DNA of 63,506 nucleotides, filler included, from Squatina squatina (Eukaryota): assembly GCA_031763465.1 (NCBI GenBank). It is 4 parts of 4 records of this genome, joined end to end, with 100 filler letters (N's around TTAATTAATTAA, not from the genome) between each part and the next. Parts side by side here need not be neighbours in the genome. Positions count along the whole stretch, not along the records: positions 36,154 to 50,354 come from JARFOE010000080.1; 3 more parts are not named here. The stretch is one strand, 5' to 3'. The position numbers and the translations under genes are program-made. Positions within the stretch are counted from its first letter, which is position 1, and each line of letters starts with the position of its first letter. Below, in pieces: positions 22,597-56,091 of this stretch. The notes beneath the pieces are model-generated. The model did not search any database, was not told where the DNA came from, and saw only the letters and a list, made by a program, of their open reading frames with translations.

Positions 22597-23198
22597 TTAG
22601 TTGAAGTTTGTTTTCCGTAAATGCCTGTTGGGAATCTCCAGGGCACTGACCTGCAGTGGCCACGAGCCGCCCATGATCCCCGCCTGTATGGCAACACCAA
22701 TCACCACCGCCAGATCGGGATCCACCGAGGTGTTGGGCTCCTTGTCGAAGAACTGGCGGATCACCCGGCGTATCCGCGGGATGCGTGTGGAGCCGCCGAC
22801 CAGCACTATTTCGTCCACCTCGTGTCGGTCCAGGTGACCATGGGACAGCACCTCCTCCACTGGCTCCAGGATCTTCTCAAAGAGGTCTCGGTTCAGCTCC
22901 TCAAAGAGATCCCTGGTCACTGTTTCCTCGAACAAAACTGCGTTAGTGCTGCCGCCGGCACCGTCGTCTCCTTCTCCTCCTCCATCACCGGACCGCCCGG
23001 GGTTCGGCAGGGACAGCGGGACCCGGATCAGCGCCGAGTCAGAGAGGGTCAGGTTCAGCTTGGCCGCTTCCACGGCTTGGCGCAGGTGGTACACGTCCTG
23101 CTTGTGGGAAGGCAGAGTTCCGTACCGCTGGTGTATCTGGTTAAGCAGGAACTGCAGCAACCGCTGGTTGAAGTCCTGGCCACCTAGCTGGTTATTTC
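22597..23198 (-). CDS. HSPA13: Heat shock 70 kDa protein 13 (STCH), last coding exon
   Basis: GNNQLGGQDFNQRLLQ...EIVLVGGSTRIPRIR...PNTSVDPDLAVV.GVAIQAG..GGSWPLQVSALEIPNRHLRKTNFN*, the C-terminus specific to HSPA13. ctcag| acceptor at 23199-23200. Confidence 0.96.
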
Positions 23199-23239
23199 CT
23201 GAGCAAATAAATCAATTCAGACAGTCATAACTTGGATGG

Positions 23240-29726: not shown

Positions 29727-30467
29727 NNNNNNNNNNNNNNNNNNNNNNNNNNNNNNNNNNNNNNNNNNNNNNNNNNNNNNNNNNNNNNNNNNNNNNNNNN
29801 NNNNNNNNNNNNNNNNNNNNNNNNNNNNNNNNNNNNNNNNNNNNNNNNNNNNNNNNNNNNNNNNNNNNNNNNNNNNNNNNNNNNNNNNNNNNNNNNNNNN
29901 NNNNNNNNNNNNNNNNNNNNNNNNNNNNNNNNNNNNNNNNNNNNNNNNNNNNNNNNNNNNNNNNNNNNNNNNNNNNNNNNNNNNNNNNNNNNNNNNNNNN
30001 NNNNNNNNNNNNNNNNNNNNNNNNNNNNNNNNNNNNNNNNNNNNNNNNNNNNNNNNNNNNNNNNNNNNNNNNNNNNNNNNNNNNNNNNNNNNNNNNNNNN
30101 NNNNNNNNNNNNNNNNNNNNNNNNNNNNNNNNNNNNNNNNNNNNNNNNNNNNNNNNNNNNNNNNNNNNNNNNNNNNNNNNNNNNNNNNNNNNNNNNNNNN
30201 NNNNNNNNNNNNNNNNNNNNNNNNNNNNNNNNNNNNNNNNNNNNNNNNNNNNNNNNNNNNNNNNNNNNNNNNNNNNNNNNNNNNNNNNNNNNNNNNNNNN
30301 NNNNNNNNNNNNNNNNNNNNNNNNNNNNNNNNNNNNNNNNNNNNNNNNNNNNNNNNNNNNNNNNNNNNNNNNNNNNNNNNNNNNNNNNNNNNNNNNNNNN
30401 NNNNNNNNNNNNNNNNNNNNNNNNNNNNNNNNNNNNNNNNNNNNNNNNNNNNNNNNNNNNNNNNNNN

Positions 30468-31233
30468 GGGAGAATCTTTCTCTTTTTGGGAATGTTACAG
30501 GGACTGTTGGATCCAGAGGTGGGCACCTGTGCCTCGACATGGCTGCCAGAGTTCCGATGCCGACTCAAGGTATAATTGTCCGAGGGGCCAGCGCTGTGCC
30601 GCAGCAGAAGTTGACTCAGAACACCTCCTTTCTGAGAGGAATGGGACAAGGCTGGAGACGAAGATAAAGGGGGAGAAACCATTTCTTGCTTCAGGTTCTC
30701 CAACGGGAAGGATGGGTGCTTGTGTTCGGGCCTGCTTGGCACTGGCAGCTGGCGATTGGCACTTTCTTCCAATGCTTGCGTGTTTGAGGAGAAGCCAGCC
30801 TCTTCCTCAACAGGCTCGGCCTTGACTTTGACCATGGATATGGGTTCTGTGAAGACGGCTTGCCCATTGCAGTAGTCCTCCGAAGGCTGCGCGATTGCCA
30901 AGCTCGGTGGTTCACCCTGCCTTCCATGCAAGTGACTCTTTAGGACCTTATCCTTCTCTGGAGTCCTCAGAAGGAGCTGAAGGACACTGCGTCTTTCAAG
31001 TAGGTTTTCGAGATCTGCGTTGGGAGTTGACGCTGCCTGGAGGCCTTGACTCTCCTGCCCGGTGCTGGGCTCGTGCAACATTGGCGGCTGAAAGCAAAGA
31101 GGGTCGCCCGACCTACCGAACAGGAGGCAACCTGAGGTCTCGCCTGCCCTGGCCTCCACAGGGCCCAGGGCAACATTCTTCTGCTCGATGTCCGCCTGGG
31201 AGGCCTCCGGAGACTTGTGGAAGCCAGTGTAAG
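30468..31233 (-). CDS. NRIP1: RIP140 middle segment of the single coding exon
   Basis: LENLLERRSVLQLLL, VKVKAEP, GVLSQLLL and PKKRK (LxxLL boxes and basic motif of RIP140). Confidence 0.92.
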
Positions 31234-32071
31234 NNNNNNNNNNNNNNNNNNNNNNNNNNNNNNNNNNNNNNNNNNNNNNNNNNNNNNNNNNNNNNNNNNN
31301 NNNNNNNNNNNNNNNNNNNNNNNNNNNNNNNNNNNNNNNNNNNNNNNNNNNNNNNNNNNNNNNNNNNNNNNNNNNNNNNNNNNNNNNNNNNNNNNNNNNN
31401 NNNNNNNNNNNNNNNNNNNNNNNNNNNNNNNNNNNNNNNNNNNNNNNNNNNNNNNNNNNNNNNNNNNNNNNNNNNNNNNNNNNNNNNNNNNNNNNNNNNN
31501 NNNNNNNNNNNNNNNNNNNNNNNNNNNNNNNNNNNNNNNNNNNNNNNNNNNNNNNNNNNNNNNNNNNNNNNNNNNNNNNNNNNNNNNNNNNNNNNNNNNN
31601 NNNNNNNNNNNNNNNNNNNNNNNNNNNNNNNNNNNNNNNNNNNNNNNNNNNNNNNNNNNNNNNNNNNNNNNNNNNNNNNNNNNNNNNNNNNNNNNNNNNN
31701 NNNNNNNNNNNNNNNNNNNNNNNNNNNNNNNNNNNNNNNNNNNNNNNNNNNNNNNNNNNNNNNNNNNNNNNNNNNNNNNNNNNNNNNNNNNNNNNNNNNN
31801 NNNNNNNNNNNNNNNNNNNNNNNNNNNNNNNNNNNNNNNNNNNNNNNNNNNNNNNNNNNNNNNNNNNNNNNNNNNNNNNNNNNNNNNNNNNNNNNNNNNN
31901 NNNNNNNNNNNNNNNNNNNNNNNNNNNNNNNNNNNNNNNNNNNNNNNNNNNNNNNNNNNNNNNNNNNNNNNNNNNNNNNNNNNNNNNNNNNNNNNNNNNN
32001 NNNNNNNNNNNNNNNNNNNNNNNNNNNNNNNNNNNNNNNNNNNNNNNNNNNNNNNNNNNNNNNNNNNNNNN

Positions 32072-32498
32072 CGCCCAGATGCTGCTGACGCGTCTGGGGC
32101 TGGCGGAGCGGGTGGAGTACCAGCCCTCGCAGCTCTCCGGCGGCCAGCAGCAGCGTGTCAGTATCGCACGCGCGCTGATGAACGGCGGTCAGGTGATCCT
32201 CGCAGATGAACCGACCGGGGCGCTCGACAGCCATTCGGGTGAAGAGGTGATGGCGATCCTTCACCAGCTTCGCGATCAGGGGCATACGGTCATCATCGTT
32301 ACCCACGATCCGCAGGTGGCTGCGCAGGCCGAGCGCATCATTGAGATCCGCGACGGAGAGCTGGTCAGCAACCCGCCGCCGCGTGAGTCCAGGGCAGCGG
32401 CGCCGAAAGAAGCGCTGCCGGCATCAACAGGCTGGGGGCAGTTCTCCAGCGGCTTTCGCGAGGCGCTGACCATGGCCTGGCTGGCGATGGCGGCCAAC
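32072..32498 (+). CDS. macB: Bacterial macrolide export ABC transporter MacB fragment (Enterobacteriaceae-like; probable contaminant)
   Basis: [68 protein letters not shown]...[15 protein letters not shown]. Carries the ABC signature, Walker B and H-loop, nearly identical to recalled E. coli/Salmonella MacB. No decay; CpG-rich codons. Confidence 0.95.
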
Positions 32499-33433
32499 CT
32501 CTCGCTGGCTGAGGCGGGTGTGGCCCGGGCGCCCAGCGAGTGCTCGCGGGAGTACTGCTGAAGCTGGGTGTCGCTGGAGAGCAGTAGGGCCAGCTGGCTG
32601 CAAGCGACACTGGGCTTGGGCGAGCCGGGGGTCCGGGCTCCATTCTCCACCATGTTGGCCACGGCCCGCAGCCTGGCGGAGCAGGAGATGGGCTCTCCGA
32701 CCGGCCTCGCGTCGCCAGGCGAGCGGCAAAGTCTCCGATGGTCGGCGGGGCTGTGGTAAAGGCTCTCGTTCTCCTTGGGGAGGTGGTCGGCCTGGCTGTG
32801 GTCCCTGTTCTTGAGCAGGGCCCTCAGGTGGCTGGACACCAGCCCGTAGCTCCTCAGATCTTCCTCCGGCGAAGAGGCGCGACTGCCCGGGGATGCCAGC
32901 TGGCCAGGCCTGGGAGCGCTGCCGTGCTGGGACAGTGCTACGTTCTGCAGCCTGGAGCTGAAAGACTGCAGCAAGGAGGCCAGCAATGTGCTGTGCTGCT
33001 GCTGCTGCTGCTCTTGGGTTTTGCCCAGTGCGCCTGGTCTGTTGGTGGCCGGGCTGCCCTCTTCCTCACTGGGCTCCAGCCCGTGCCCGCACACCCTTCT
33101 CCTCTTGGCCCCCTCCCATGCCTCGGCTTGGAGTAGCCTGGCCTTCTTCACGTTCAGCGCGGAGGCAGCTCTGGCAGCCCTCTGGTGAGAGGTGATGGGC
33201 AGCTGGCGCGAGGGAGAGGTGGCCAAGCCCTCCCCTCCTCCTCCTCCTCCTCCTCCTCTGCTGCTGCGACTGGCGGAGGTCCAGCAGGCTGCACTTTCGT
33301 CTTCGGAGACACGTTTGGTGGACGGGATGCCCACGCTGCCCCCTGGCGCTCGATGCATTAATACACTCTCGAGGTAAGTTAACACGACTGAATCCTGGTG
33401 CATCTCAGAGCAAAGCTCCTCTCCATGGGTCAT
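32477..33433 (-). CDS. NRIP1: RIP140 N-terminal segment
   Basis: Starts [22 protein letters not shown]; contains [55 protein letters not shown] and ASERLAA. Confidence 0.96.
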
Positions 33434-34002
33434 GTTCAANNNNNNNNNNNNNNNNNNNNNNNNNNNNNNNNNNNNNNNNNNNNNNNNNNNNNNNNNNNNN
33501 NNNNNNNNNNNNNNNNNNNNNNNNNNNNNNNNNNNNNNNAGGACAGGATTAGGGGATAAAATCGAGGCGAACAGACTCAGACATGGACAGATTGCACACA
33601 ACATTAATCTCGAGCAAACGCAGAGGACAGAGGAGGCTGTTTCAGGAAGGTCAGGAGGGTCAAGCTGATTAACTCCCCAGGCTTTGGCAACCGCTGGGCC
33701 CAGGCCCGGGGTTACTTGAGTTCACAGAGAGCCATTGACATTCAGCTCCACCACTTACTCATTAACGCATCAGCGGGCGATCGGAGACTATTTAAAGGGC
33801 CAGCTGCCTTAAAGAAAAGTACAAAGATAGACTGAGGAACTAATATGTTGCTGCCCTTTGGCACGGCTCAGGATCAAAAGGAAGAGATTCTGCCCATTTT
33901 AAATTAAGATTTTTTTTTAAATGGCCATTACGCCGTGAACTTGCGAAGATGAAGCTTTGATTAAATCAAATGGTCCCATTTTATTTTTCAAAACGAGATT
34001 TA

Positions 34003-34158
34003 TAAGATGACCAGATCGACAGTCGCAAACCGGGACAATCAGGCTGCACATGCGCAGTTCGTTCTTCACTGGAACTGTGCCTGAGCAGTCAGTTCTTCAC
34101 TGGAACTGCGCATGTGCAGTCGAGTGGGCCCGAAAAACCGGGACATCTGGCCACCCTA
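34003..34158. mobile_element. Short non-autonomous DNA transposon (hAT-Blackjack-like ends)
   Basis: Imperfect TIRs TAAGATGACCAGAT / ATCTGGCCACCCTA, AAACCGGGACA subterminal motifs and an internal perfect 17-bp inverted repeat. Confidence 0.6.
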
Positions 34159-34403
34159 AGTATGCAGATACCTGATNNNNNNNNNNNNNNNNNNNNNNNN
34201 NNNNNNNNNNNNNNNNNNNNNNNNNNNNNNNNNNNNNNNNNNNNNNNNNNNNNNNNNNNNNNNNNNNNNNNNNNNNGTTGTGTGGTTCTCATTACCTCAC
34301 ACTAACGGAAGGTTAGCTTTAAATTGGGCAATGATCACAGAGCAACTAAGCGATTGTCTGGTCATTTTCTGTTGCAACAACTGTTTGCCTTGTGTTTCCA
34401 CAG

Positions 34404-34531
34404 CACTGGTTCACTGCACTCCCACCCGTCCTAACCTTCGAACTTTCCAGATTTGAGTTTAATCAAGCTTTGGGAAGGCCTGAGAAGATCCATCACAAAT
34501 TGGAATTTCCATCCGTCTTGTACATGGACAG
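34404..34531 (+). CDS. USP25: Ubiquitin-specific peptidase 25, catalytic-domain exon (128 nt)
   Basis: [43 protein letters not shown] with ccacag| and |gtacag sites. QALGRPEK and the position next to NRIP1 favour USP25 over USP28. Confidence 0.93.
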
Positions 34532-34639
34532 GTACAGCAGCCCTGTAGTTTGTGAGTTGTTATTGAGCAGGACTAGAACAGAGTATCCTGGTGCTCCCAG
34601 AAGGATCTTTGCAGTGAAGCCACAACAACTGTAACTGGA

Positions 34640-34835
34640 ATTTATATTGCGCTTTTAATGTAGTAAAGGCGCTTCACAGGAGCGTTATCAGACAAAATTT
34701 GACACAGCCACATAAGGAGAAATTCGGACATTAGACCAAAAGCTTGGTCAAAGAGGTGTAGGGTATTAAGGAGAGTCTTAAAGGAGGTCGAGAGGCAGAG
34801 AGGTTTAGAGAGGCAATTCCAGAGATTGGGACCCA
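34640..34835 (-). mobile_element. L2 LINE 3' end
   Basis: Reverse strand gives LWNCLSKPLCLSTSFKTLL..HLFDQAF plus the AAGCGCAATATAAAT tail. Confidence 0.7.
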
Positions 34836-35191
34836 TAAAGTTGATACCAGAAATGCGAGGTTATACATATCAGGAAAGGATGAACAGGCTGGGTGTCTTC
34901 TCCAGAAAAGAGAAGGCTGAAGGGTGACCTAATAGAGGTCTTTAAAATTATGAAAGGTTTTGATGGAGTGTATGTACAGAGGGAGTGTTTCTACTTGTGG
35001 GGAAGAACAAAACTAGTGACCATCAATATAAGATAGTCACCAAGAAATCCAATAGGGAATTCAGAAGAAAATTATTTACCCAAAGAGATGTGGGAATTTG
35101 CTTCAACCACACTCGCAGGGAGTGGTTGAAGCAAATTGTATCGATGCATTTAAGGGGAGGCTGGACAAGCGTATGAGGGAGAAGGGAACAG
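34836..35191 (+). mobile_element. CR1 LINE 3' fragment
   Basis: AGAAGGCTGAAGGGTGACCTAATAGAGGTCTTTAAAATTATGAAAGG; translates VVEANCIDAFKGRLDK. Confidence 0.8.
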
Positions 35192-35447
35192 NNNNNNNNN
35201 NNNNNNNNNNNNNNNNNNNNNNNNNNNNNNNNNNNNNNNNNNNNNNNNNNNNNNNNNNNNNNNNNNNNNNNNNNNNNNNNNNNNNNNNNNNATCCCTCTC
35301 CAGACCCCCTGATCGGCCAACTGACCAAGGCATCAGAGGGCTGTGGTCACCTGCAGATCCCTACCCCGATCAAAGTGCCTTTCAGCGAGAAGGGGAGCAA
35401 CCTGGCAATATACATTGTTCAAAATGCTGTGTTCTTTGTGTTGCAAG

Positions 35448-35581
35448 GAAAAGAGTTGGAATACTTGGAGCAGCCATCGGCGAGCGATCCCTCTAAAGTT
35501 TGTGAAGAAGACACAGCAAGGACGGTCTCCAAAGCTGCCACGGAGTATGAAGACCGGGGCCCAGAGGCTGCACTGCAAGCG
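35448..35581 (+). CDS. USP25: USP25 exon C-terminal to the catalytic domain (134 nt)
   Basis: (G)KELEYLEQPSASDPSKVCEEDTARTVSKAATEYEDRGPEAALQA matches recalled human [43 protein letters not shown]. gcaag| and |gtatga sites. Confidence 0.85.
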
Positions 35582-36053
35582 GTATGACTTGCAACAAGCC
35601 AACTTTTCTTTCCTCTTTTTAATTTTGATATCAAATAAAGAAATGCTGAATTAGTTAATGTCAGGCCGCTCTCGGTTATTGCTCGCTAAGAAAAGCCCAT
35701 CGACCTCCCCCTCCACATCCTCCTTACCCACCCCCATTAACTGTTCTAAAACCCATGATTTAATCGGGTTATTTACAGGAGTATTGTAGCCCAGCGAAAG
35801 AGCAGTGTTGTTTTCGCTCGCCTTCCCTTTCTCTTAAATCTGTTCCCTACATAACCTCAATAGGTGCATTTTGAAAATAATTCATTGCTCGCGAAGTACT
35901 TTGGGATTTCCTGAGGGTCAGATAGGGTCTTCTGTAAATGTAGGTTCTTTTCACTTTCTTCCTGCCGTCTAATGCAGTCGCCTGTTTGGTCTTGCTTCTC
36001 CCCTGCCTCCGGCCAATATCTTTCCCTCTCTCTCTCTCTTTCCCCCCCATTTC

Positions 36054-36153
36054 NNNNNNNNNNNNNNNNNNNNNNNNNNNNNNNNNNNNNNNNNNNNTTA
36101 ATTAATTAANNNNNNNNNNNNNNNNNNNNNNNNNNNNNNNNNNNNNNNNNNNN
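36054..36153. other. Artificial scaffold linker N44-TTAATTAATTAA-N44
   Basis: Identical structure to 17732-17831. Confidence 0.95.
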
Positions 36154-36270
36154 CTGATGGAGGATTTCAACCCAAAATGTTAGCCTGTTTTTCCACTTTT
36201 CAGACGCTGATGCACGTACTGTGTATTTATGGCATCATTTTATTTTCAGATTTTCAGCATTCATTGTTTT
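36154..36270 (+). mobile_element. Penelope-like element terminal repeat remnant
   Basis: CTGATGGAGGATTTCAACCCAAAATGTTAGCCTGTTTT...TTTTATTTTCAGATTTTCAGCAT. Confidence 0.5.
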
Positions 36271-36304
36271 TCTTTTTATTTCTATAACTTAGTTTCAATA
36301 ACTA

Positions 36305-36725
36305 GTGTCAACTGTGGCTCAAGATGGTAGCACCCTCGCCCCTGAGTCATAAAGTTGTGGGTTCGAGTCCCACTCCAGAGACTTGAGCACAAAAATCTAG
36401 GCAGACACTCCAGTGCAGTGCTGAGGGAGTGCTGCACTGTCAGGATTGCCTACTTTCAGATGAAATGTGAAACCAAGGCCCTCTCATAAAAGAGCCTATG
36501 GCACTAATTCGAAGAAGAGCAGGGGAGTTATTCCTGGTGTCCTGGCCAATATCTATCCCTAAATCAACATCACTAAAACAGATTCTTTGGGAGCTTGCTG
36601 TGCACAAAATGGCTGTCATGTTTCCTACATTACAACAGTAATTACACTTCAAAAAATAATACTGTAAAGCGCTTTGGGACGTCTGTTGGTCGTGAAAGGC
36701 ACTATATGAATCCAAGACTTTTTTC
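36305..36725 (+). mobile_element. Near full-length Deu-domain SINE (SacSINE1-like)
   Basis: Pol III A box TGGCTCAAGATGG and B box GGTTCGAGTCC; Deu core ATGGCACTAATTCGAAGAAGAGCAGGGGAGTT; L2-like tail GTAAAGCGCTTTGGGAC...AAAGGCACTATAT. Confidence 0.85.
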
Positions 36726-36865
36726 TTTTTTTATTAGTATTAAATTACAGTAGTATCATTCCTAACAAAAAAGCTATCACTGCTGAATTCTCTCTGATGA
36801 CTGGCCCTTTATGAGGTGGAACAAATGAGGATAATGGACAGTTTGGAGGCATTGGTTGAGGGGGA

Positions 36866-37062
36866 AATTTTATTCAGGACATCAGGAGAACGCTCTGTTC
36901 TTCAAATAGTGCAATGGGAACTTTTACATTCATCTTGACAGGCATCTCATTTGAAACTCCCTCAGCACTGCTCTGAAGTGTCAGCCTAGACCATATAGTG
37001 GCTTGAACCCACAAACCTCGTCCTTCAAGGTGAGAGTCCTTCAACTGAGCCAAGTTGACACT
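36866..37062 (-). mobile_element. Deu-domain SINE, internally deleted 5' half
   Basis: Reverse complement of the head (GTGTCAACTTGGCTCAGTTG...GTGGGTTCAAGCC) and the Deu core. Confidence 0.7.
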
Positions 37063-39314
37063 TATAATGATCATTTGAGCATGTGACCAAATTGGTCTCT
37101 GTAATCAGATTCCAACAAACCCTTTTACTTGGGGGTTTTAAGGGATGGGGAGAACCTGAAAGAACGGATATAAACATAATTTGAAAATGGGATTGAAAAA
37201 AGAAATGTTACTTACACAACAATCCTAATTTACAACAAACATAATCAGAGGTTGAACTGACGACAAGCATGGGCTTAAAGTCAAGTATTATTGTGTGAAA
37301 GCAGTGGCTCAAAATATTCCAGTCTATCTTTAAACAAATACTTCCACTATATATTAGAGTCTACAACTCACCAAACCAAAGAAAATGCATCCTAATTGAA
37401 CAACATCAGTATATGCCACTGAATACAGTCCCCCAAGTAATGTATAAATCATTGCCACACAGGCTGAGATCACCACTGAGAGATTCTTATTTAGATCCAG
37501 AATGACACCAGAAGTCGTACCTGAGTAAAAAGGTGAAATTGTTATTCCATTAACAAAACAATATTTGGTAGAAAAGAGCAGGTTTACATTAGACTAACAA
37601 TAGCACCTCTGAAAATCCACAGGCCTTCTGATGCAGTCAGGCGATACACCCATAGCGGCAAGGGTGCCTGCCAGCAAAAATGTTAATTAGGGAACCTCCC
37701 ACTGATTGTAGATACTTCAGTGGGAGTGCTGTGGAAGTCCATAAATTAGGCTGGAACCTGGATACACTGGGTCCTGGCCTGTGTTGAAAGTGTCTGCGGG
37801 GACTTGTTGAGGGTGGAAACACTGTGCACCCTAAACGTGATCCCCAGTGTTAGAGGGGATATGGCCAGGGAGAAAGGCACTCCCAGGCTGAGAGTTTATT
37901 TGGGCCTCCAGCCACTGGCATGTTGGCTGAAAAGAGGGAGACAGGTATCAAGGTTGGTGGAAGTGGGGCCCATTGATGGATCAAGGCCTGGGTGTAACCT
38001 GGACCCCCCCCCCCCCTCAAAGGACTTCACCAGTCTTCGGCCTCATTCCTACCACCCGCCCCCAATCTGGTGCATATCCAATGCAGCTACCAGCAAAATG
38101 TTAAATAGGATACCTCCCAACTGACCCTGAATATTCCTGCGGCATCAGTGGCGTGGTGGTGGGCGGATCCCATCACTTTTCCCAGGATCAAAGACCAACA
38201 GATATTCGAGCCCAATGTCCTTTCTTNNNNNNNNNNNNNNNNNNNNNNNNNNNNNNNNNNNNNNNNNNNNNNNNNNNNNNNNNNNNNNNNNNNNNNNNNN
38301 NNNNNNNNNNNNNNNNNNNNNNNNNNGGAGATTAATCTTCAAATCCTGAAGCCTCCAGGCCATTCCTGGAGGCTTGACAACTCTAAGTTTCGTATATCTA
38401 CCAAGTTAACCGAAACACTCATCTGCAAATTGCTCTTCAAAATTTCACAACCAGAAAGACTTCCAGTTGATCACCAGGAGATTGGCAGCAAAAACGAAGA
38501 GTTATGTTGTTGCCTTCAGCCAAGTGAGAAGTGGTCGTGAATGAGCTGGTACTTGGAAAATCTTACGCAAGAAGTTTCCTCGTGGCGACTCCGATTCCAT
38601 CGCTGCATTTCGGTCCAAGTGTAGCGGTAACCCCATTAACACACGCCAATGAGGTTTCTACCGCCCTTCCAGCCAAGTTAAAGCAGTCGAGCAGGAGCAG
38701 CTCTGAGGAAATTCCGGCTACACTTAAGTCTTTAATAACATGGAGCTCACCATTATCAAGTTCACTTATGTGGGAAAAGTGATCAGCAAGTTTGGGTCAA
38801 GAAGTGGAGCTCATTATATGGGTGCTTACAATAATGCATATGGAATCGACATAGTGTCGACCTGACGACCAAGGTGAAGGTCCAGAATTAAGTGTCCATT
38901 CCAACACTCTTTTGTAGTCTGCAAGGCATGAACGGACTTACAGGGAGCAATAACTTGACAAATTCCACACGCCACCTACAATCAACACTATGATGCCGAT
39001 TTTTGACTTCCGGTGCACTCTTCCTCAGATTCGTAACACTGTTAAAACAGACCTTGTATGCTTTTAAATCCCAGTGGATAGGGACTCAATACACAGAAAC
39101 TGTAAGCAAATATTCTATGGCTTGAGGGAAAAAAGAACAGTCTGAATGATTGCTCTTTTAAAATCAACTTCATTCATTAAAAGTGGGAGAAAGAATATTT
39201 TATTTGAATGCAATATGAAGCAATGCCAAGGTGGTGCAAAACTTGGGTGTTTCTCACTAGACCGCCAGGCAACTTACCACTAAAAATTATAACTAGGTAT
39301 TGTACATTGAAAAC

Positions 39315-39525
39315 TTCTGTTTTATGACTTGTTCAAGGGAAGTGGCTGACGCAGGCAAGGCCACATTTTGTTGCTCTGAGAAGGTGCAGTCCTTGTGGTG
39401 ATTGTACTCCCACAATGATGTTACATATAGAATTCTGGGAGTTTTTGTTCCAGTGATGATGAAGCAATATGGCCAAGCTAGGATGGATGGTATGTCACAT
39501 GGAGGTGATGGTGTTCCCATAATAT
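39315..39525 (-). mobile_element. LINE/SINE 3' tail
   Basis: Degenerate reverse complement of the 16645-16817 family. Confidence 0.55.
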
Positions 39526-41463
39526 TNNNNNNNNNNNNNNNNNNNNNNNNNNNNNNNNNNNNNNNNNNNNNNNNNNNNNNNNNNNNNNNNNNNNNNNNNN
39601 NNNNNNNNNNNNNNNNNNNNNNNNNNNNNNNNNNNNNNNNNNNNNNNNNNNNNNNNNNNNNNNNNNNNNNNNNNNNNNNNNNNNNNNACAAAACTAAACT
39701 GAACTAATGTTGCAGAAGGCAGAATTAGTTCAGGGTTTTCTGTAGTTTATACACAATTACAATTAGTTTAGTACTTTAAAGCATTTTGTTGCAAAATTTG
39801 TCTAATATGCTGCTACACAATCTACACTGAAATAGTAATGTCTACCCTGCAGACACACACAGAGCTATGTTGCTAGTGTGCAGTGTTGTCGATAGGATCT
39901 CAATAAAATGCAACAGTTCATGTGTGAAACTTTCATATTATATCCACTCACAGTGTAAAGAAAAGTAATATAATTCTAGATCCTAATGGGGGTTGTTTCT
40001 GGAGAGACTATTTTGAGCTTTATAGCACAAAGGTAAAGTACTGGTAGTTATAGGTCCGTCACTGGTGATGGAATTAATTTGAGCGGACAAGTTAAGAGTA
40101 ACACCAAATATTAAAGCATAATGGCTTCATTGTGATTTTTTTTCCTATGACATATTAGTATTAGGGCACTAAATAGGCCTAGTGACAACACTAGATGAGG
40201 TTACACACAAATTTATAAGACCTAATTATTAGGCCTGATGTGACTTCAGTGCAGAGATGACCTGGTCCTGGTTTAAACCTATTCTGTAGATCAGGAGCAG
40301 ACCTTATGAGAAAGTCTAACACAAGTTTACTTCACTTCCTATTATTAAAAAAAAGTGATGTGGTGAAGTTTTATTTAATTTAAAGAATTCACATCCTTGG
40401 CCACTAAGGACAGTATGTGCGTACCCTGTTAAAACTAGCCTGTTAAACATTTACACCCACCATCTGCCATCCCCTCATGCAGCACAAGATAAAAGTTAAT
40501 GACAGCAGCATATTTTAAAGTGATTAATGTTGACTATCGGTTTGCCAAGTACAAACGCTGATGGTGATCATCATATGTGGGATGAAAAAGACATCCCACC
40601 TCACAAAAAGAACTCCACCTGTTCAATCCAGCAAAAGAACTTAAATGTTAAAAGACTGGACCTAACTGAATCACAAAGTGTATTATCGAATGATGTACAT
40701 TTTGAAATTGTTAATTTAAATCGAAGATGTAAAACATGAGCTTGAATTTGTCAACTCGAAGATGTGAAGGATGATATCCACAATAAATAGACAAAATGGT
40801 AGAATTAGGAAGGGATGTGATAGTAAAGAATAGAAAATATGTACCAAGAGATGGGGATGATGGGGAACAGTGAGAGCTGACAGGATAGCTGGGAATAGGA
40901 GCCACAACAAGGTCAGCAGGAGTAAACAGAATAGATATAGAAAGTATGTGGGAACACGATGAGGTAATGAAGAGGCAATTACAAAGACTATTGGCAAACA
41001 ATGAGTCTAACCAGAATCACGACCTTGATAGAGGTATCATGTGTAGTCTCTGTGTGACATTTGTGATGAATGTGGTACAGAAGGGACTGGACAACACAGA
41101 AGGTAATCAGATCCCTTTATTTATGAAGGACAACTGGGAACAAATGGTTTAAAGGAACCAAGACATAGACTGAGATGTGATGCAGCAAATGGGAATGGGG
41201 TTTTTGACCCCTATGGAAAGGAAAAGAAATGAAGATATTAGACCAGTGGAATTGGTTTTGCCTTTAAGAAAAAATGGAAATGAAATCGAACCTTGGAAGG
41301 TGTATCGGGTAGAATCGGTCCCAATGGTGGAGACTCTGAGTTAGGTCTGATCCATAAACAGTGTGAGGAATATCCGAGTTATCTGATTAAGAAGGAAGGA
41401 ACTTGGATAGCACCAGATATGCAGTGTTATATGCTGAAAGGAACATCTTGAGTTTATAGATGT

Positions 41464-41820
41464 GACTGGACAGACTAGATACAGGAACGATGTTTCCAAT
41501 GGTGGGGAAGTCCAGAACCAGGGGTCACAGCCTAAGGATAAGGGGTAAGCCATTGAGGACTGAGATGAGGAGAAATTCATTCATCCAGAGAGTGGTGAAC
41601 CTGTGGAATTCTCCACTACAGAAGAGAGTTGAGGCCAAGTCAATACATATATTCAAGAAGGAGTTAGATACAGTTTTTATTGCTGAAGAGATCAAGGGAT
41701 AGGGAGAAAAGCAGGAACAGGGTACTGAATTTAGTTGATCAGCCATGATCCAATTGAATGACAGAGCAGGCTCGAAGGGCCGAATGGCCTACTCCTGCTC
41801 CTATTTTCTATGTTTCTATG
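41464..41820 (+). mobile_element. 5'-truncated CR1 LINE
   Basis: MFPMVGKSRTRGHSLRIRGKPLRTEMRRNSFIQRVVNLWNS plus the TTTCTATG tail. Confidence 0.88.
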
Positions 41821-41929
41821 GAATCTGACTAAGAAGGGAGGAGCTTGGATAGCACCAGATATGCAGTGTTGTATTCTGAAAGTAACAACTTGGGTTTTGT
41901 AGATGTTACATATTAATATACACAGTAAA

Positions 41930-42670
41930 TGTAGATCACTGAGAAGTGTGGAGGAACAGATGGACCTTGGAGAGCATGTCCGCAGATCCCTGAAGGTAGC
42001 AGGACAGGTAGATAAGGTGGTTAAGAAGGCAAACGGGATACTTGCCTTTATCATCTGAGGGATAGAAAATAAGATCGGGGAGGTTATGCTTGAACTGTGT
42101 AAAACACTAGATAGGCCATAGCTAGAGTACTGTGTGCAGTTCTGGTCAGCACATTACAGGAAGGATGTGATTGCAACAGAGAGGGTACACAGGAGATTTA
42201 CGATGATGTTGCCTGGTCTGGAGAATTTTAGCGATGAGGAAAGATTGGATCGGCTGGGGTTGTTTACTTTGGAACAGCGGATGCTGAGGGGAGACCTAAT
42301 TGAGGTGTATAAAATTATGAGGGGTCTAGATAGAGTAGATAGGAAGGACCTATTCCCCTTAGCTGAGGAGTCAATAACCAGGGGCTTAGAGTTAAAGTAA
42401 GTGGTAGGAGGTTTAGAGGGGATTTGAGGAGAATTTTTTTCACCCAGAGGGTGGTGGGGTCTGGAGTTCACTGCCTGAAAGTGTGGAAGATGCAGAAACA
42501 TCATAGCATTTAAAAAGTACTTCGATGTGTACTTGATGTGCCGTAACCTGCAAGACTACGGACCAAGAGCTGGAAAGTGGGATTAGGCGGGAAAGCTCTT
42601 TGTCGGCTGGCATCGACACGATGGACCGAATGGCCTCCTTCTGTGCTGTAAATTTCGATGATTCTATGAT
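41930..42670 (+). mobile_element. 5'-truncated CR1 LINE
   Basis: LEYCVQFWSAHYRKDVIATERVHRRFT..LGLFTLEQRMLRGDLIEVYKIMRGLD plus the ATTCTATG tail. Confidence 0.9.
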
Positions 42671-44097
42671 CTACATATTGTTCCAGTTTGTGGGTTCACC
42701 CACGACAAATTATCGGCAAAATGTCAGGTTGGAATAAATAAATGGAAAAGGAAAAGGACAGTATTGTGTGACTACTACTGCCACTTGTATGACTGTGGAT
42801 TCAACCCAATGCCCCACACTAGAACATCACTTTTGTTTGATTCCTAGGAGAAATAGGCGTATCAGTGCTGAAACGTTGGTACTGGTCCATCATCATAACG
42901 CCACTTATCTGCAGATGAGGCTGGCTCTGGAGAATGAAGCTATTGGAGCCATTCCACACATGGGACACTATAGACCTCCCCTGTCTCTGGCTTCAAAGTT
43001 CATCATTGAGTGAATTAGGATGTCCCAGAAACATATATTGCAAATGATGCAGACAAACAGAGAGACAGAGCAGGCAATCCCGAGTCTTGGGAATCATGAA
43101 TAGTGGGAAGTAGTATCTAGTGTGGAACGACATCCTTGAGCTGGATTGTTCCAGATGGGATTGGTGATCGCACAGATAATAGCTTCAGGGATTCTGGTCA
43201 TTGTATTATTATGTGTAAGGAAGTCNNNNNNNNNNNNNNNNNNNNNNNNNNNNNNNNNNNNNNNNNNNNNNNNNNNNNNNNNNNNNNNNNNNNNNNNNNN
43301 NNNNNNNNNNNNNNNNNNNNNNNNNACCATGTGGATAACTTACAGACCACAGGCGTGCAAGTCAAAGCACCTCAACCTTCCCAGGTGGACCAAACAACTA
43401 GAATTGAAGAAGTGAGTATTTGTTTCGTTTATTTAGGTTTATTCAGGGGGTGCAACGATTATACGTCACTTTCCTCTGTAATGTGATCTTTTGTGATTGG
43501 TGTAAGTTGGAACTATTCTGGTACTTCATGACTGGTGAGTCTTTCACCACATGTGTCCAGCTCCAAAATTCTTATATAAAATGATGACTAATCCATTTAT
43601 GGACCAGAAACAAACAGAATAAAAAAAGTGATTTATTGAGTCTACTAACCACTGCACCTCCAGTCTTTACATCATCTACATAAGTTAATAAATCTCCATT
43701 TCAGTAGGAGAGGACAAATTAGCACCTTTGGATACTGCTGTCTTTTAATCCTGATCAGGGTAAGTGATTTAAAAAAAAAGTAATGGATTCCCTTCCCATA
43801 ACCCTCTGCTGCCCCCTCCCACCCCACCCCACCCTGTGATGCAGTTCGTGCAGTGCCTCCCGATGTACAGTGCATTTCAGGTCACTTGCTGAATTCTGTG
43901 CAAAAGATGATACTTGAGACCCATGACCAAGTTTCTGTGAATGCGATGGTGCACGGATTCCAAAACNNNNNNNNCAAGTACAGCTGGAGTCAAGTGACAA
44001 AAGTAATTGGATAAATAATGTTCTGGTCTTTGTAATAAGGCACAGTTCAAGTCATCTGAGGCACTTTGGAGTTGGCTGAAATGTAACTTGGTGCAGA

Positions 44098-44397
44098 TCA
44101 AACCTCAGAGCTGTCGCTGTGATAACTCTGTGCAGTCATGGCCTCGTTGCTGGGTGATTTCATGTAGTCTGCTTTCTTATCTGATTGCTTCCTGCGTTTC
44201 AGCAAGAGGACGACGATAATAATGACACAAATAGCTAGTAATAAGGCAGCGATCCCTCCAATAATGGGAACATTGCCATCTTCGTCGCCTCGGTCATTTG
44301 GTGACCTAGCAACAGCTCCTTCAGGGAAGATCTCTTCCTCAACAACCTGCTTCCGCCTGAGGATGTCTGGAGCGGTGTGGTGACTCAGCTGGCCCTT
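44098..44397 (-). CDS. FREM2: FRAS1-related extracellular matrix protein (FREM2, or TM-bearing FREM3 paralog): TM helix and cytoplasmic tail
   Basis: VPIIGGIAALLLAICVIIIVVLLL-KRRK...SNEAMTAQSYHSDSSEV* versus the recalled FREM2 end SSEPMVPPQSHHNDSSEV (PDZ-binding SEV). Paralog and 5' boundary are uncertain. Confidence 0.7.
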   Translation of the reverse strand, partial: KGQLSHHTAPDILRRKQVVEEEIFPEGAVARSPNDRGDEDGNVPIIGGIAALLLAICVIIIVVLLLKRRKQSDKKADYMKSPSNEAMTAQSYHSDSSEV

Positions 44398-45579
44398 CCA
44401 TATCAGGAGATGAAGGCAAGCCATGTCTGGAAGAGACAATGGCATAAATGGTACATAAAGGTAAGGCCCGATGGCAGATCTCAGAACTGAGGCCTCCAGA
44501 GCAGCACAGCAAAGGTTTCATGGGGACAAAACAAGGAGGAATAGCCATCGTTAAATCTGTGCCATGTCACTCACCCTCATCCTCAGGGGGAGCATGACAC
44601 CTCCCTTGCAATGGGCTGACCAATCTCTGCGTCGATGATTCCGGTCATATAATTTTCCAGGACTGACAATTGTACCTCCTCTCCCTCCTCAGCTCCTCCC
44701 TGATTTTGCTGTGCCCTGATGGCCGCCAGTTTAGCCTGCATATATAAGGACAAGTGCATTAAAGCCTACCCTTCGCTTTTAACTTGCAACTTCATGTCAT
44801 GGGCAAGAGGCTGTGTGCAATGCCCACTGGGCGCGATTAAGCAGGGTTCCACTTTAAGCACGTCATCAAGAATCTGAATTCTATGGCACATTACAAATGA
44901 GACACTTAGACATGAGGTGGCCATTGGTGAAAGAGTCAGACTNNNNNNNNNNNNNNNNNNNNNNNNNNNNNNNNNNNNNNNNNNNNNNNNNNNNNNNNNN
45001 NNNNNNNNNNNNNNNNNNNNNNNNNNNNNNNNNNNNNNNNNNTGGGATATTATCCAGGTGGTACATGAGGCGAGGGAAGCTGCTTTGCCTGCCTGTGTCG
45101 GATTCGAGGTGATGGTCAGTGGCCGAGAGGAGGTGGAGAGACTTTTACTGAGATTGCAGGTTGGTGATAAGTTCTTAGGTGTATTCCGAAGAGGTGGTGG
45201 TCTCACTCTTAAACCTGCCGGTTTATATTGCGGACAAGGTGCTAATAAAAATGTTGTTTTTCTTGTTAATAGCAGGAGTCTCACTTACCCTACAATTAGC
45301 AATGAGACTACCTGACACCTATTTTCATTTGTGAGTAGTAGGTTAGATTTCTATATTTTCACAGAGAACATCCAGTCAAGGTTCTTTAAGACTTTAAAGG
45401 AAGGACATGTTTTGACTTTGATTACATCATCTGTTATTTCCCCTCAGATGCAAATATTTCATTGTGTTATGGTGCAGGAAAGATGCATTTGTGCCTGTTA
45501 CAATGTTTTTGTCCCTGTACTGCTGTCACCTGCACTCTGGAGAACGGACGAGGGGGATTACATTGGAACAGTTACAAAA

Positions 45580-45734
45580 TCATAGAACAGTACAACACAG
45601 GAGGAGGCCATTCAGTCCATCGAGTCCGTGGCGGTTCTTTCGAAGAGCAATCCAGGCAATCCCACTCCCCCGCTCTTTCCCCATATCCCTGCAATTTTTT
45701 TTCTCCTTCAAGTATTTATCCAATTCCCTTTTGA
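45580..45734 (-). mobile_element. CR1 3' tail
   Basis: CATAGAACAGTACAACACAGGAGGAGGCCATTCAG...; translates KRELDKYLK. Confidence 0.75.
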
Positions 45735-48666
45735 NNNNNNNNNNGTGCATTCCAAATCCAAACCACTCGTTGCGTAAAAAGGAAGAAGTTGGTGCTTTCC
45801 GGAGAGGGGAAAAGAGTAAAATGAGCTGTGCAAAAAAAAGAAACTCACTCACCAGGATGCAACATAACAAAGAGACCACGGAATCGTGCATCAGTACGGA
45901 AGTTCACAACCAAGCGTCCTTCACTGTTGATCCGCATGCTAGTTGGGTAAAGGGCACCTGTCAGCAGACAACAGGCATGCTTATCAGATTAGGNNNNNNN
46001 NNNNNNNNNNNNNNNNNNNNNNNNNNNNNNNNNNNNNNNNNNNNNNNNNNNNNNNNNNNNNNNNNNNNNNNNNNNNNNNNNNNNNNNNNNNNNNNNNNNN
46101 NNNNNNNNNNNNNNNNNNNNNNNNNNNNNNNNNNNNNNNNNNNNNNNNNNNNNNNNNNNNNNNNNNNNNNNNNNNNNNNNNNNNNNNNNNNNNNNNNNNN
46201 NNNNNNNNNNNNNNNNNNNNNNNNNNNNNNNNNNNNNNNNNNNNNNNNNNNNNNNNNNNNNNNNNNNNNNNNNNNNNNNNNNNNNNNNNNNNNNNNNNNN
46301 NNNNNNNNNNNNNNNNNNNNNNNNNNNNNNNNNNNNNNNNNNNNNNNNNNNNNNNNNNNNNNNNNNNNNNNNNNNNNNNNNNNNNNNNNNNNNNNNNNNN
46401 NNNNNNNNNNNNNNNNNNNNNNNNNNNNNNNNNNNNNNNNNNNNNNNNNNNNNNNNNNNNNNNNNNNNNNNNNNNNNNNNNNNNNNNNNNNNNNNNNNNN
46501 NNNNNNNNNNNNNNNNNNNNNNNNNNNNNNNNNNNNNNNNNNNNNNNNNNNNNNNNNNNNNNNNNNNNNNNNNNNNNNNNNNNNNNNNNNNNNNNNNNNN
46601 NNNNNNNNNNNNNNNNNNNNNNNNNNNNNNNNNNNNNNNNNNNNNNNNNNNNNNNNNNNNNNNNNNNNNNNNNNNNNNNNNNNNNNNNNNNNNNNNNNNN
46701 NNNNNNNNNNNNNNNNNNNNNNNNNNNNNNNNNNNNNNNNNNNNNNNNNNNNNNNNNNNNNNNNNNNNNNNNNNNNNNNNNNNNNNNNNNNNNNNNNNNN
46801 NNNNNNNNNNNNNNNNNNNNNNNNNNNNNNNNNNNNCCACCATAACTCCAGTGGGAGACCAGCTGAATCGGCAAAAAAAATTCAGAAATGGCCGTTGCTG
46901 CTGATTCCTACGGTTCTGCTTGTCTTCAGCTAGAGTTACAGGTGGAGCTCCTGTGAAATTTCAGACTCACAATGAGTTTTAAATATTCTCACAAACTAGT
47001 TACATTTGTGGTGTAAAACTCGCTAATAAATCATACAGGATGCTTTGTGGTGACACCATTCCTAAATCAACATTCATGCACTGTTGGAATGGTGCTATTG
47101 TGGGACAATTATTCTCTATAAAGGATACAAATTTCACCATTGCATCCAGACTGAGCCATAACTAGTATTTAATGCAATATTGAGGATTCTGTTTATACTA
47201 TTAACATTGTCAATTTAATCCTGCTACTGAATTTTTAAAAATCAGTGCATCTTGAAGTGTGTTAAGCTGCAGTTTGCTGCAAGATCCAAGATAGCAATGG
47301 CATTCTGTGTTCAGTGAGGAACAACTGACAGGAGCAGTTCCACTTGGCGGAAGTATACTTCCTGCTTGACAATCAGTGTGGGGCTGACAGCGTCTGTGGA
47401 GAATTCCTTGTTCCTGATCAGCTAGACAAGGAAATACAGTAGCCTAATTTGGGAGGAGGAGAAAGTGAACTACTCATCCCACTTTGCATTGGAGAGTTTT
47501 GCAAGATTTACCAACACTATCTTAGATTTATAGATTCCACGGTATAAAATATTTTAGTGTTTTTACACAAAGTAAAAGAAGTAATGGTCAGGTGACATCA
47601 GACTAGGCTTTTAAAAACATTTAGATTGTAGGAGGAAGCAAAATTATTTTTAACCATGGTTTCATATGGAAGATTGGGATTAAATGCATGGTATCCTTGA
47701 CATGAACATTGAACATTCTGAAACATTTCACATTATAATTTAATTATTAGTGCTGTTTTAAATACTGACATAATATGAAGCTCAGTTTTTCAACTTAAAA
47801 TCCTGACACTAAGTATAATTTTACATGGCTGGGATTAGTACAGTGATTATCACTTTATCAAATTAAAATCTGTAACATTGCTCTATCAAAATAACCAAAG
47901 CAACAATTTTTTTAAGTCTTTTTTCCTACACCTTGATATGGTCTGATTAAATCCTAACATTAGGTTGAAGCGTAAATAGTTCAATGCAGAATGGATGATT
48001 TATAAGCCAAGTAGGCAATGTTGTAATATAATTCTTCAGAAATTTTTTTTTAGAAATATTGTCCTTTTGAATTCAGACTTTGCTCGTGTCCTTCAAGCCT
48101 AATGCACAATACGTGAGGTACCAGACTTCAGACAGATTCTAAACCAACACAACATTCCATCGATCAATGTGACAGAAAGTCAGACTCTCTCAATGTATAA
48201 AATGAAATGGCTGAAATATCAAGGCACTTCTACACCCTTTGCCATATAACAAAAACAATTATTGCTATTAATCATCCAGTAACATTCCATTCTAATTTAA
48301 CTGATATTGATAGAAAGAAACTGCATTACAAAAATAATATAAAAGGTTTTTGAACTGACAATTCTGCCACTTCAAACAGCCACCAACAGAACACAACAGA
48401 TTGCAAACGTGTCTTTTCCCCACAATGTTAATTAACTCTCGATAAATCCCAAACCTGTTCAAGACTTTAATAGTGCTCATATTTCTGGGCAGTTTTTCTA
48501 ACACTTCTCTTAGTGTCCTACAAGATATAATAAAAAGCCTGACATCTCATAGGTGTTTCCTTCTTTATCTTTTAAGCTTCCAATCTTTATCGTGCTCTCT
48601 CTGCTACAATTTTTATTTTCTCTCTCTTTGTTCACCAAAGCCCTAAATAATTGCAGCACGACTTAC

Positions 48667-49407
48667 GGGGGCCCCAAATGGTTAGTGCTGATGCTGGCTC
48701 TTTAATTGGTCCGGAACACTTTTTTTGCGCCGGCCCCGGAGCAACGGCCTCTGACCGGGAATTTGGATTGTTGTCGTTTTTTTAGGGTACTGAGCCGGCC
48801 CTAACCCGGCGCCTGGAACGTAGCACTAGCAACGTGGCACTGGTTGCCAAGACCAATGCGCTGACGTCAGCCACGGCCCCGCCCCCTGAGTTAAAGGGGA
48901 GGTCCACTAGCTGGTGTCACAGAGTCCCGGTGGCTGCCACTGGGCCACTAGGGAAGTGGGTGACTGGGCCGGCACGCCAATGAGTGTGCCGGCAAACATA
49001 AAGACAGGCCCGGGGGGGTGGCGGGGAGTGGCTGCCATGGATCGGCCGACAGGAGAGTCGGCCGATCAGAATAAATGGCAGCCGCCGGCGCTACTGCCCT
49101 TCCATTTAAGCGTCATTTGGAACAACAAGTTGAACCTGTCGTTGCCAACAATGCCTGCCTCACTAGCGACCCGCAGACCAATCCGCCGTGGGTTGCTAGT
49201 GACGCTGAAAGGGGGGAGCAGCGCTATGGGGTTGGTGCGTGATGTTATGACGTTGTGCGCCGATTAGCGCTGGATTTGGTGCCCCTGGCGCCTTTGCGCC
49301 GTGGGGACACCGACACCAATTCTGTGTGCGATGGTTTTATGCCCGCGGAATGTCAAGAACACGTTTTATGCCCCACTAGCGCCAAAACAAGATCAATTGG
49401 GCCCCCC
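48667..49407. mobile_element. GC-rich non-autonomous DNA transposon-like insertion
   Basis: GC/CpG-rich block in AT-rich context, bounded by GGGGGCCCCAAAT and AATTGGGCCCCCC (imperfect TIRs). Confidence 0.5.
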
Positions 49408-49469
49408 TTTACTTTTACACTCCAACCCTCTTGTTAGCTTTCTGTGATTCGTGAAGGACTCCCAAATCC

Positions 49470-50080
49470 CTCTGAATTCCAACATTTACTCGTCTTTCAC
49501 CTTTTAAAAAATATTCTGCTTTTCCATTCTCCCTACTAAAGTGGGTCATTTCACACTTCCCCACACCACCATCTTGCCCAATCACATAACCTATCTACAT
49601 ATCCCTTTGCAATCTCTTTGCATCCTCCTCAAAACTTACTTTCCCACCTAGCTTTGTATCATCAGCAAACTTGGATACATTACACTTGGTCCCATCATCT
49701 AAGTCATTGATATAGATTGTGAATAGCGGAAGCCCAAGCACTGATCCTTGCGGTACTCCATTAGTTGCAGCCTGCCAACCTGAAAATAACCCGTTTATTC
49801 CTACTCTGTTTTCTGTCCGTTAACCAATCCTCAATCCATGCTGATATATTACCCCCATCCCATGAGCTCTAACTTTGTGTAATAACCTCTTGTGTGGCAC
49901 CTTATCAAATGCTTTTTGAAAATACAAATACACTACATCCACTGGATCCCCCTTATCTACCCTGCTAGTTACAACCTCAAAAAACTAACAGACTTGTCAA
50001 ACACGATTTCCCTTTCATAAATCCACGTTGACTCTGCCCAATCATATTATGATTTTTCTAAGTGCCCTGTTACCTCTTTC
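49470..50080 (-). mobile_element. CR1 LINE reverse transcriptase fragment
   Basis: Reverse strand encodes DVVY.YFQKAFDKVPH.RL, WIEDWLTDRKQ, GVPQGSVLG and SKFADDTKLGG motifs. Confidence 0.88.
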
Positions 50081-55695: not shown

Positions 55696-55954
55696 NNNNN
55701 NNNNNNNNNNNNNNNNNNNNNNNNNNNNNNNNNNNNNNNNNNNNNNNNNNNNNNNNNNNNNNNNNNNNNNNNNNNNNNNNNNNNNNNNNNNNNNNACGTA
55801 CACTCAAACCAACAACCTGCCTTTTTCTTTCAGATTCTGATCACCCTAATGCGCATATCCTTTACTTTAAAAAAAATTATTTCTGAACTGCCTTAATTAG
55901 CTGGCTAAAACAGCCGATAGTGGCTATACAATTAAATCTGCTTGTCTCAGATAC

Positions 55955-56091
55955 CTTGAGAATATTCTCCTTAGTGATGCTGTCAAAGAAAATCTTTGCT
56001 CCTTCTTTGATCGACCTTCCACTTCCTCTCTTCCATGTGACAGTGGGTTTGGGGTTCCCAGTCACCTTGGCTTTAAAAATAGCATCTTTGC
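55955..56091 (-). CDS. IGSF22: Immunoglobulin superfamily member 22, first Ig (I-set) domain exon (137 nt)
   Basis: (G)KDAIFKAKVTGNPKPTVTWKRGSGRSIKEGAKIFFDSITKENILK versus recalled human [44 protein letters not shown]. ctatag| and |gtatct sites. Confidence 0.85.

Follow-up and report, generated by a model that had tools for sequence, protein, structure and literature searches.

A decayed env locus in Squatina squatina from a multi-copy family of probably retroviral, non-gamma envelope genes, and a likely captured relative in other sharks

The window, a stretch of 63,506 nucleotides (nt) from the genome of the shark Squatina squatina (GCA_031763465.1), carries the fossil of an envelope gene (env) at positions 40511-43225 on the + strand. 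The reality of this fossil was confirmed, and because of its stops, frame changes and insertions the window copy now makes no protein. We hold it probable that the locus is a decayed, 5'-truncated copy, interrupted by long interspersed nuclear elements (LINEs), of a multi-copy gene family, whose intact shark and frog relatives are likely retroviral envelope glycoproteins (Env) of a non-gamma, Ovex1/TERV-like kind, with a fold predicted at low confidence to resemble that of fusion protein F and foamy virus Env. An earlier note, made from the sequence, had described the locus as the decayed gene of a class I fusion glycoprotein of viral type, in which the fusion peptide comes early and a long cysteine-rich body follows, and this description is supported by the relatives, the profile match and the collinear pieces reported below.

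Identification of the env fossil and its relatives

Pieces of the locus were translated with X at the stops and searched against protein databases. With phmmer and 1.84e9 proteins, the C-terminal piece recovered four relatives at E<=0.001, the best being a 739-amino-acid (aa) protein of Chiloscyllium punctatum (GCC29952.1, E 4e-25), followed by proteins of Pelodytes ibericus (723 aa), Heptranchias perlo (250 aa) and Xenopus tropicalis (438 and 519 aa). A profile search, in which the best 8000 candidates were scored, added Scyliorhinus torazame XP_072333160.1, whose 90% cluster includes Heterodontus francisci XP_067889054.1. The closest relatives of the window copy are shark proteins, and its pieces align in order to intact proteins of 723-754 aa from sharks and one frog. 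Searched the other way, GCC29952.1 gave six tblastn pieces in the window, collinear except for a duplicate, and a profile of six relatives, run against the six frames of the window, gave seven domains, all on the + strand within 40584-43217 and, except for one duplicated piece, following the order of the profile. Since the best domain scored 114 bits, compared with at most 0.8 bits in 20 shuffles, the similarity to env is not due to chance. Word-index protein searches with the pieces yielded no relative among 197 and 137 candidates, and no related locus was found among 28 pattern matches in viral contigs or among 112 in each of two metagenome scans.

Although the scaffold has 47 gaps, none falls within 39688-43225, the piece that contains the env-like DNA, which is arranged as follows, in window coordinates:

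39688-40510, no strand assigned: single-copy host flank, not polymerase (pol) or long terminal repeat (LTR); covered at single-copy depth by about one contig per run (93-95% alike); nothing matched in Pfam or PDB
about 39990-40070: short unrelated repeat inside the host flank
40511-40873, +: remnant of the C-terminal part of a subunit resembling the surface subunit (SU), 5'-truncated, with stops and a frame change; 40584-40715 weakly aligned (hhalign E 2e-4, tblastn E 0.21)
bin 40514-40572: onset of multi-copy contig depth, within the SU-like remnant
40874-41335, +: fusion peptide, first heptad repeat and start of the central domain, with 3 stops (hhalign probability 99.1, E 9e-19); fusion peptide identical to the shark proteins at 25-26 of 36 residues
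41350-41461, +: first part of the Cys-rich domain, in a different frame, with 1 stop (tblastn 51% over 39 aa; profile E 2e-8)
41462-41820, +: LINE 3' fragment, presumably CR1-like, boundaries approximate (summed depth >1e6; loose ends 41806-41820)
41823-41915, +: second copy of ~75-80 nt of env with a short continuation (89% to 41381-41455; tblastn to the same residues, 488-511, of GCC29952.1)
41917-42670, +: second LINE 3' fragment, presumably CR1-like, boundaries approximate (depth 1e5-1e6; loose ends 42669-42670; 8-nt duplication)
42674-43160, +: rest of the Cys-rich domain, second heptad repeat and Trp-rich membrane-proximal stretch, with 3 stops and, near 42745, a frame change (phmmer E 4e-25 to GCC29952.1; profile 114 bits)
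43161-43225, +: transmembrane helix (19-residue hydropathy 2.94)

In the frames that align to the relatives, stops occur at 40871, 40886, 41150, 41171, 41449, 43011, 43101 and 43137, amounting to 8 in 442 aligned codons, with frame changes between the pieces. The earlier note had placed four of these (40871, 40886, 43101 and 43137) correctly, as well as the motifs that it named; the single frame that it proposed for 42744-43225 holds, with a third stop, at 43011, that had gone unmentioned. What it took for the N-terminal subunit is a remnant of only the last ~115 codons of that subunit, the DNA up to 40510 being host flank, and nothing in the window copy corresponds to the relatives' first ~150 residues. 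Its cleavage site (40862-40873) does sit where the relatives carry a basic motif, though no basic residues remain there. By comparison with the intact relatives, the window copy has a first heptad repeat that is shorter by 40 residues; since the longest contigs across this region are collinear with the short form, the shortness is probably a family trait.

Both inserts are very-high-copy repeats (summed contig depth 1e5-1e7), which we take to be CR1 elements on the strength of their 3' tail and translation; 42122-42397 of the second gave no Pfam match. The first LINE is flanked by the duplicated env segment (41381-41455 and 41823-41897, 75 nt at 89% identity) and the second is bounded by an 8-nt duplication (41907 and 42672). 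The two CR1 insertions of the earlier note therefore stand as two high-copy inserts, but the second begins near 41917, inside what had been proposed as a middle piece of env (41907-41929), and the proposed splicing-out had overlooked the duplication around the first. Directly after the transmembrane helix, an assembly gap (43226-43325) hides the tail and any 3' LTR. Right past this gap, 43326-43418 (+) is a short open stretch that closes at a GTGAGT splice-donor-like site, and is possibly a host exon on the + strand rather than the env tail.

Anatomy and predicted fold of the intact proteins

In the intact relatives, a basic motif closes a front part of 272-290 aa. The rear part, 451-464 aa in length, opens with a Gly-rich hydrophobic peptide, which is followed by a long helix, then by a second helix, a Trp-Trp pair and one C-terminal transmembrane helix; its ectodomain has ten cysteines. 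By pattern, the basic cleavage site was found in four of five relatives and is missing in the window copy. Gamma-type Env is defined by CX6CC in the transmembrane subunit and CXXC in SU, according to the available passages of PMC9967133, and both motifs were absent from all five intact relatives scanned; judged by these motifs, a gamma-type protein is excluded, as had been proposed. The UniRef name of GCC29952.1 is 'Ig-like domain-containing', and antibody V domains in PDB match its residues 68-145 weakly (E 0.05-0.9), suggesting that the front subunit likely carries an immunoglobulin (Ig)-like domain.

The frog members of the family (Pelodytes and Xenopus) are 53% alike and have open frames. 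The Heptranchias perlo entry (XP_067846792-4, three RefSeq accessions) is a 250-aa C-terminal half on a long branch, another lineage of the same Env; it is thus a second shark fragment, distinct from the window copy, and may be transcribed.

An AlphaFold2 model of GCC29952.1, built from a 6-row alignment (model 1; predicted local distance difference test, pLDDT, 36), was compared with known structures using Foldseek. Against BFVD, 22 matches were obtained at E<=0.001, all of them viral glycoproteins or unnamed or uncharacterised viral entries. At their head stood F-type glycoproteins from negative-strand viruses of insects, together with the Env of walleye dermal sarcoma virus (WDSV; rank 2, 1.3e-6), the F proteins of baculoviruses and paramyxoviruses, and feline foamy Env. 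Against PDB there were 15 matches at the same threshold, and 14 of the 14 listed were paramyxo/pneumovirus F or foamy Env; the best E of model 1 was 1e-7. On this predicted model, an F-like fold appears likely. Foldseek rank 3 (E 1.7e-6) was taken by a filovirus glycoprotein from fish (Wenling thamnaconus), a lead only, given the poor model. The glycoprotein of Ebola virus is gamma-Env-like, unlike the F-type.

Copy number, host flank and the 5' edge

Small shares of the stretch are contained in 20 runs from 8 studies, and five of these runs were compared. Over env, the runs of four organisms (A, B, C and F) showed many distinct contigs, up to 24 at one site and mostly 80-95% alike, and therefore the family is multi-copy, as the earlier note had considered. 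Upstream, by contrast with env, a single contig per run was found, which stopped at 40510 in three of three DNA runs and continued with 335, 1862 or 650 letters unlike the window. The 5' edge of the element is thus at about 40511-40514, and the DNA before it is host flank and not pol, because of the single contig per run, the stop at 40510 and the lack of Pfam or PDB support. A decayed integrase in 39688-40510 was considered and ruled out by the same lack of Pfam and PDB support, together with the single-copy host behaviour. None of the runs that contain the stretch is recorded as RNA. One run, whose RNA nature is a guess, covers env at ~88% identity and not the flank; multi-copy DNA would look alike, so that this run does not speak for expression.

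How this edge arose can be read in two ways. The divergence of the internal duplicate (11%) and the density of stops (8 in 442 codons) speak for a copy that was already old when it was cut. Somewhat less probable, yet a serious contender for the 5' edge only, is that an env piece, already truncated, entered a vacant site once the lineage had separated from organisms A, B and F, or else that the assembly is misjoined: the three orthologous contigs stop exactly at 40510 and continue unlike the window, and the scaffold has 47 gaps. Against it, the difference between the duplicates (8/75) and the density of stops exceed what the 5-7% flank difference would allow, assuming equal rates.

An intact, likely captured env in galeomorph sharks

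The suggestion that intact, possibly domesticated relatives might exist in sharks was borne out by GCC29952.1, XP_072333160.1 and XP_067889054.1, which come from three shark orders, all have open frames with the basic motif, and are pairwise 85.4, 84.8 and 87.8% identical (82-84% over the front subunit, 89-93% over the rear ectodomain). By a rough estimate, a frame of 739 codons would have a chance of ~1e-4 of remaining open if it diverged neutrally by 10%. One contig is on record for each of these exact sequences, which gives no copy count. The front subunit is usually the fastest-evolving part of an Env; because it is conserved here, and across three host orders, the trio is likely a captured env rather than the result of recent cross-infection.

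Beyond this, and with somewhat less assurance, we favour a broader proposal: that galeomorph sharks carry a captured, intact, F-like, non-gamma env gene kept since before the horn, bamboo and cat sharks split, which would place it among the oldest captured env genes and make it the first for cartilaginous fish; that the window holds a fossil of the virus family next to that gene; and that the same kind of Env links bird Ovex1, the frog genes and the walleye-virus Env to the F/foamy superfamily. The split between horn, bamboo and cat sharks dates to ~200 million years ago.

The window copy could itself be a pseudogenised orthologue, or a retrocopy, of this intact gene, a reading that we consider very improbable. 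Its nearest tree neighbours and best matches are the three intact shark proteins, their fusion peptides are closely alike, and a 5' truncation with no LTR would suit a retrocopy. However, identity at the C terminus is only 34-38%, and the window copy sits on a branch of 1.24, compared with 0.01-0.06 among the intact three, and so it appears distinct from the intact gene; moreover, the family is multi-copy, and the longest contigs over the heptad follow the short form. The tree comprised 7 rows and 162 columns and has long branches, so that the placement of the window copy is not firm.

Which envelope family

By eye, the closest fit among published Envs is with the bird elements Ovex1 (open reading frame 3, ORF3), GGLTR11 and TERV. 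In the available passages of PMC2717909 these share with the present family the lack of CWLC, of an immunosuppressive domain (ISD) and of CX6CC, a long rear subunit, an RX(K/R)R site, and a coiled coil, Trp-Trp and transmembrane segment at the C terminus. In supplement 5 of the same paper, Asn..Cys after the first heptad, a Trp..Asp-Leu..Cys cluster, Tyr-Val-Gly-x-Gly..Cys, Pro-x-Pro ahead of the second heptad and Gly-x-His-x-Trp-Trp ahead of the anchor can likewise be matched by eye, in the same order, and Ovex1 resembles the intact shark relative in being intact across a host clade. It differs in its length (873-874 aa versus 723-754) and its bird hosts, and in that no F-like fold is proposed in those passages, which also report that no signal peptide was found and doubt its status as an Env (PMC2717909).

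Among other systems, the epsilonretrovirus Env of WDSV and of walleye epidermal hyperplasia virus 1 (WEHV1) is likewise a non-gamma Env of fish retroviruses (PMC9967133, in part) and appeared at Foldseek ranks 2 and 27; with 1159-1317 aa and 9-12% identity it is unlike the present proteins, and the model is too poor for a firm structural call. Paramyxo/pneumovirus F and foamy Env share the predicted class I architecture (passages of PMC11468914), whereas identity is 10-14%, neither PF00523 nor a foamy Env Pfam family was matched, and the front subunit here probably contains an Ig-like domain. Captured env genes such as syncytins and percomORF resemble the intact shark relative in their open frame and conservation over host orders; in contrast to it, as far as the passages of PMC12813294 go, they are gamma-type and were found via CKS17 and CX5-7C filters, and the window copy is dead.

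The earlier note had pointed to lokiretroviruses, and the locus would then be the first lokiretrovirus env from cartilaginous fish. We find this unlikely. Lokiretroviruses do provide a published F-like Env of vertebrate retroelements (PMC7947760, in part), in which a cleavage motif, an immediate fusion peptide, a heptad, a long Cys-containing body and a C-terminal anchor follow one another as they do here, and by eye the fusion-peptide and central Cys-Gly motifs resemble each other. A by-eye comparison of layouts with one full Env (Loki-Pyo) and five C termini showed differences in subunit size, cysteine number and membrane-proximal region: Loki-Pyo has a front subunit of ~116 aa, only 4 Cys downstream of its cleavage site and no Trp-Trp before the anchor, compared with 272-290 aa, 10 ectodomain Cys and Trp-Trp in the present family. 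Members of the group carry a reverse transcriptase sister to that of all other retroviruses, and gag-pol-env between two LTRs; the window copy has host flank on its 5' side and an assembly gap on its 3' side. The Xenopus relative also differs from the amphibian lokiretrovirus Env ends, PF00523, reported as matched by lokiretrovirus Env, matched neither the three window pieces nor the four intact relatives, and none of the six chondrichthyan genomes in Fig. S1 of the original screen was positive (PMC7947760). The lokiretrovirus reading is therefore not supported by these sequence comparisons. An altogether different origin, a non-retroviral endogenous element derived from an F-bearing RNA virus (paramyxo-, lispi- or xinmovirus-like) and amplified by LINEs, would agree with the presence of such viruses among the top Foldseek matches and with the fact that no LTR or pol was seen; yet the sequence relatives are all vertebrate genomic proteins and none is viral, F2 is much shorter than the front subunit, and the layout fits the Env of a bird LTR element, leaving this origin with very little probability.

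Several observations weigh against our own interpretation, that of a non-gamma retroviral Env with an F-like fold. No gag, pol or LTR was seen, so that the retroviral origin and the lineage are read from Env alone; the Pfam scan, which covered nine frames beside env and 12 chosen ORFs, gave no support for pol, and no long direct repeat lies around env within 33000-50000. No Pfam fusion family, PF00523 included, matched the window pieces or the intact relatives; the pieces matched nothing at all in Pfam or PDB, and PDB sequence searches with intact relatives did not reach a fusogen either. Both structural models are poor (pLDDT 36 and 35), the TM-scores of model 1 are 0.1-0.3, and model 2, of the Xenopus protein, had no Foldseek match at E<=0.001 (one F0 stood at rank 3); the likeness to paramyxo/pneumovirus F that the earlier note had proposed thus emerged from one low-confidence model and was not repeated by the second. 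The resemblance to Ovex1 is by eye only, and Ovex1 was absent among the four phmmer relatives and the two matches of the profile search. Two relatives only ~27% alike had the same unnamed 874-aa cluster as their first Atlas match (scores 0.82 and 0.84), which is a lead only; 874 aa is also the length of zebra finch Ovex1 ORF3 in the passages of PMC2717909. As for the locus itself, the summed depth over env, 10-100x that of the flank in the runs of four organisms, is not a copy number; among the env contigs listed, none is as alike to the window (93-95%) as the flank contigs; and the pattern of contig similarity at the 5' junction fits a later insertion or misjoin as well as a deletion.

Proposed history and significance

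Judging from the anatomy and from the biology of class I fusion proteins, a host protease would cut the protein at R-X-K/R-R, after which the front subunit (~275-290 aa), likely with its Ig-like domain, would bind the cell, and the rear subunit (~450-465 aa) would insert its N-terminal fusion peptide. The two heptads would then fold together around the Cys-rich beta body and draw the membranes together. An LTR retrovirus with such an Env may have spread through the germ line; the window copy would have decayed, gained two LINE insertions and lost the sequence 5' of mid-SU, most likely via deletion. An ancestor of the galeomorph sharks likely captured a sister lineage of this env, which is still intact. 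As to the carrier, a class I, epsilon-like retrovirus has about an even chance, a class III, Ovex1/snakehead-like one is a weaker candidate, and a lokiretrovirus is improbable. In passages of PMC2717909, GGLTR11 is described as a class I endogenous retrovirus (ERV) and Ovex1 pol as close to snakehead and spuma viruses, and the elephant shark carries epsilon-like and snakehead-like ERVs (PMC4422223, in part).

Our literature search returned no description of this Env family or of a conserved non-gamma shark env. One screen of fish env genes used gamma and beta queries (10.1101/2021.11.23.469661, in part), and another filtered on CKS17 and CX5-7C (passages of PMC12813294). Because an Env with no gamma-type motifs is invisible to such queries and filters and escapes these screens, the diversity of shark ERVs is probably undercounted. 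The doubtful Ovex1 ORF3 may, in turn, be the true envelope of an old and wide lineage spanning sharks, frogs and birds, and this would bear on the question of whether retroviral Env was originally an F-like fusogen. The intact shark gene would be a candidate host fusogen or antiviral receptor blocker. The sharks concerned lay eggs, and a placental role thus cannot explain its retention. The window locus itself is dead DNA, and its value is as a pointer to an under-described kind of Env and to a likely captured relative.

Other features of the window

Several host genes are represented elsewhere in the window. The coding region of NRIP1 (RIP140), split by gaps, lies at 30467-33439 (-) (Pfam NRIP1_repr_1 E 1e-63, repr_2 E 9e-8). 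The last exon of an Hsp70-family gene, presumably HSPA13-like, lies at 22600-23211 (-) (Pfam E 1e-37), only ~7 kb from NRIP1; this proximity, together with the 47 gaps, suggests that the scaffold is compressed and reference-ordered and that adjacencies across gaps are unreliable. An ABC-transporter ATPase stretch at 32073-32560 (+) (Pfam ABC_tran E 2e-11), which we take to be bacterial and MacB-like, directly follows an N gap and runs over the end of the NRIP1 frame, which lies on the opposite strand; the stretch is probably bacterial contamination or a chimeric gap fill. Three further exons were observed on the - strand: one of a sodium:solute symporter at 37357-37593 (Pfam SSF E 1e-6), presumably SLC5A7-like; the last exon of a single-pass membrane protein at 44101-44517 (weak TM_ErbB1 match, Pfam E 0.007); and one encoding an I-set immunoglobulin domain at 55880-56125 (Pfam E 1e-7).

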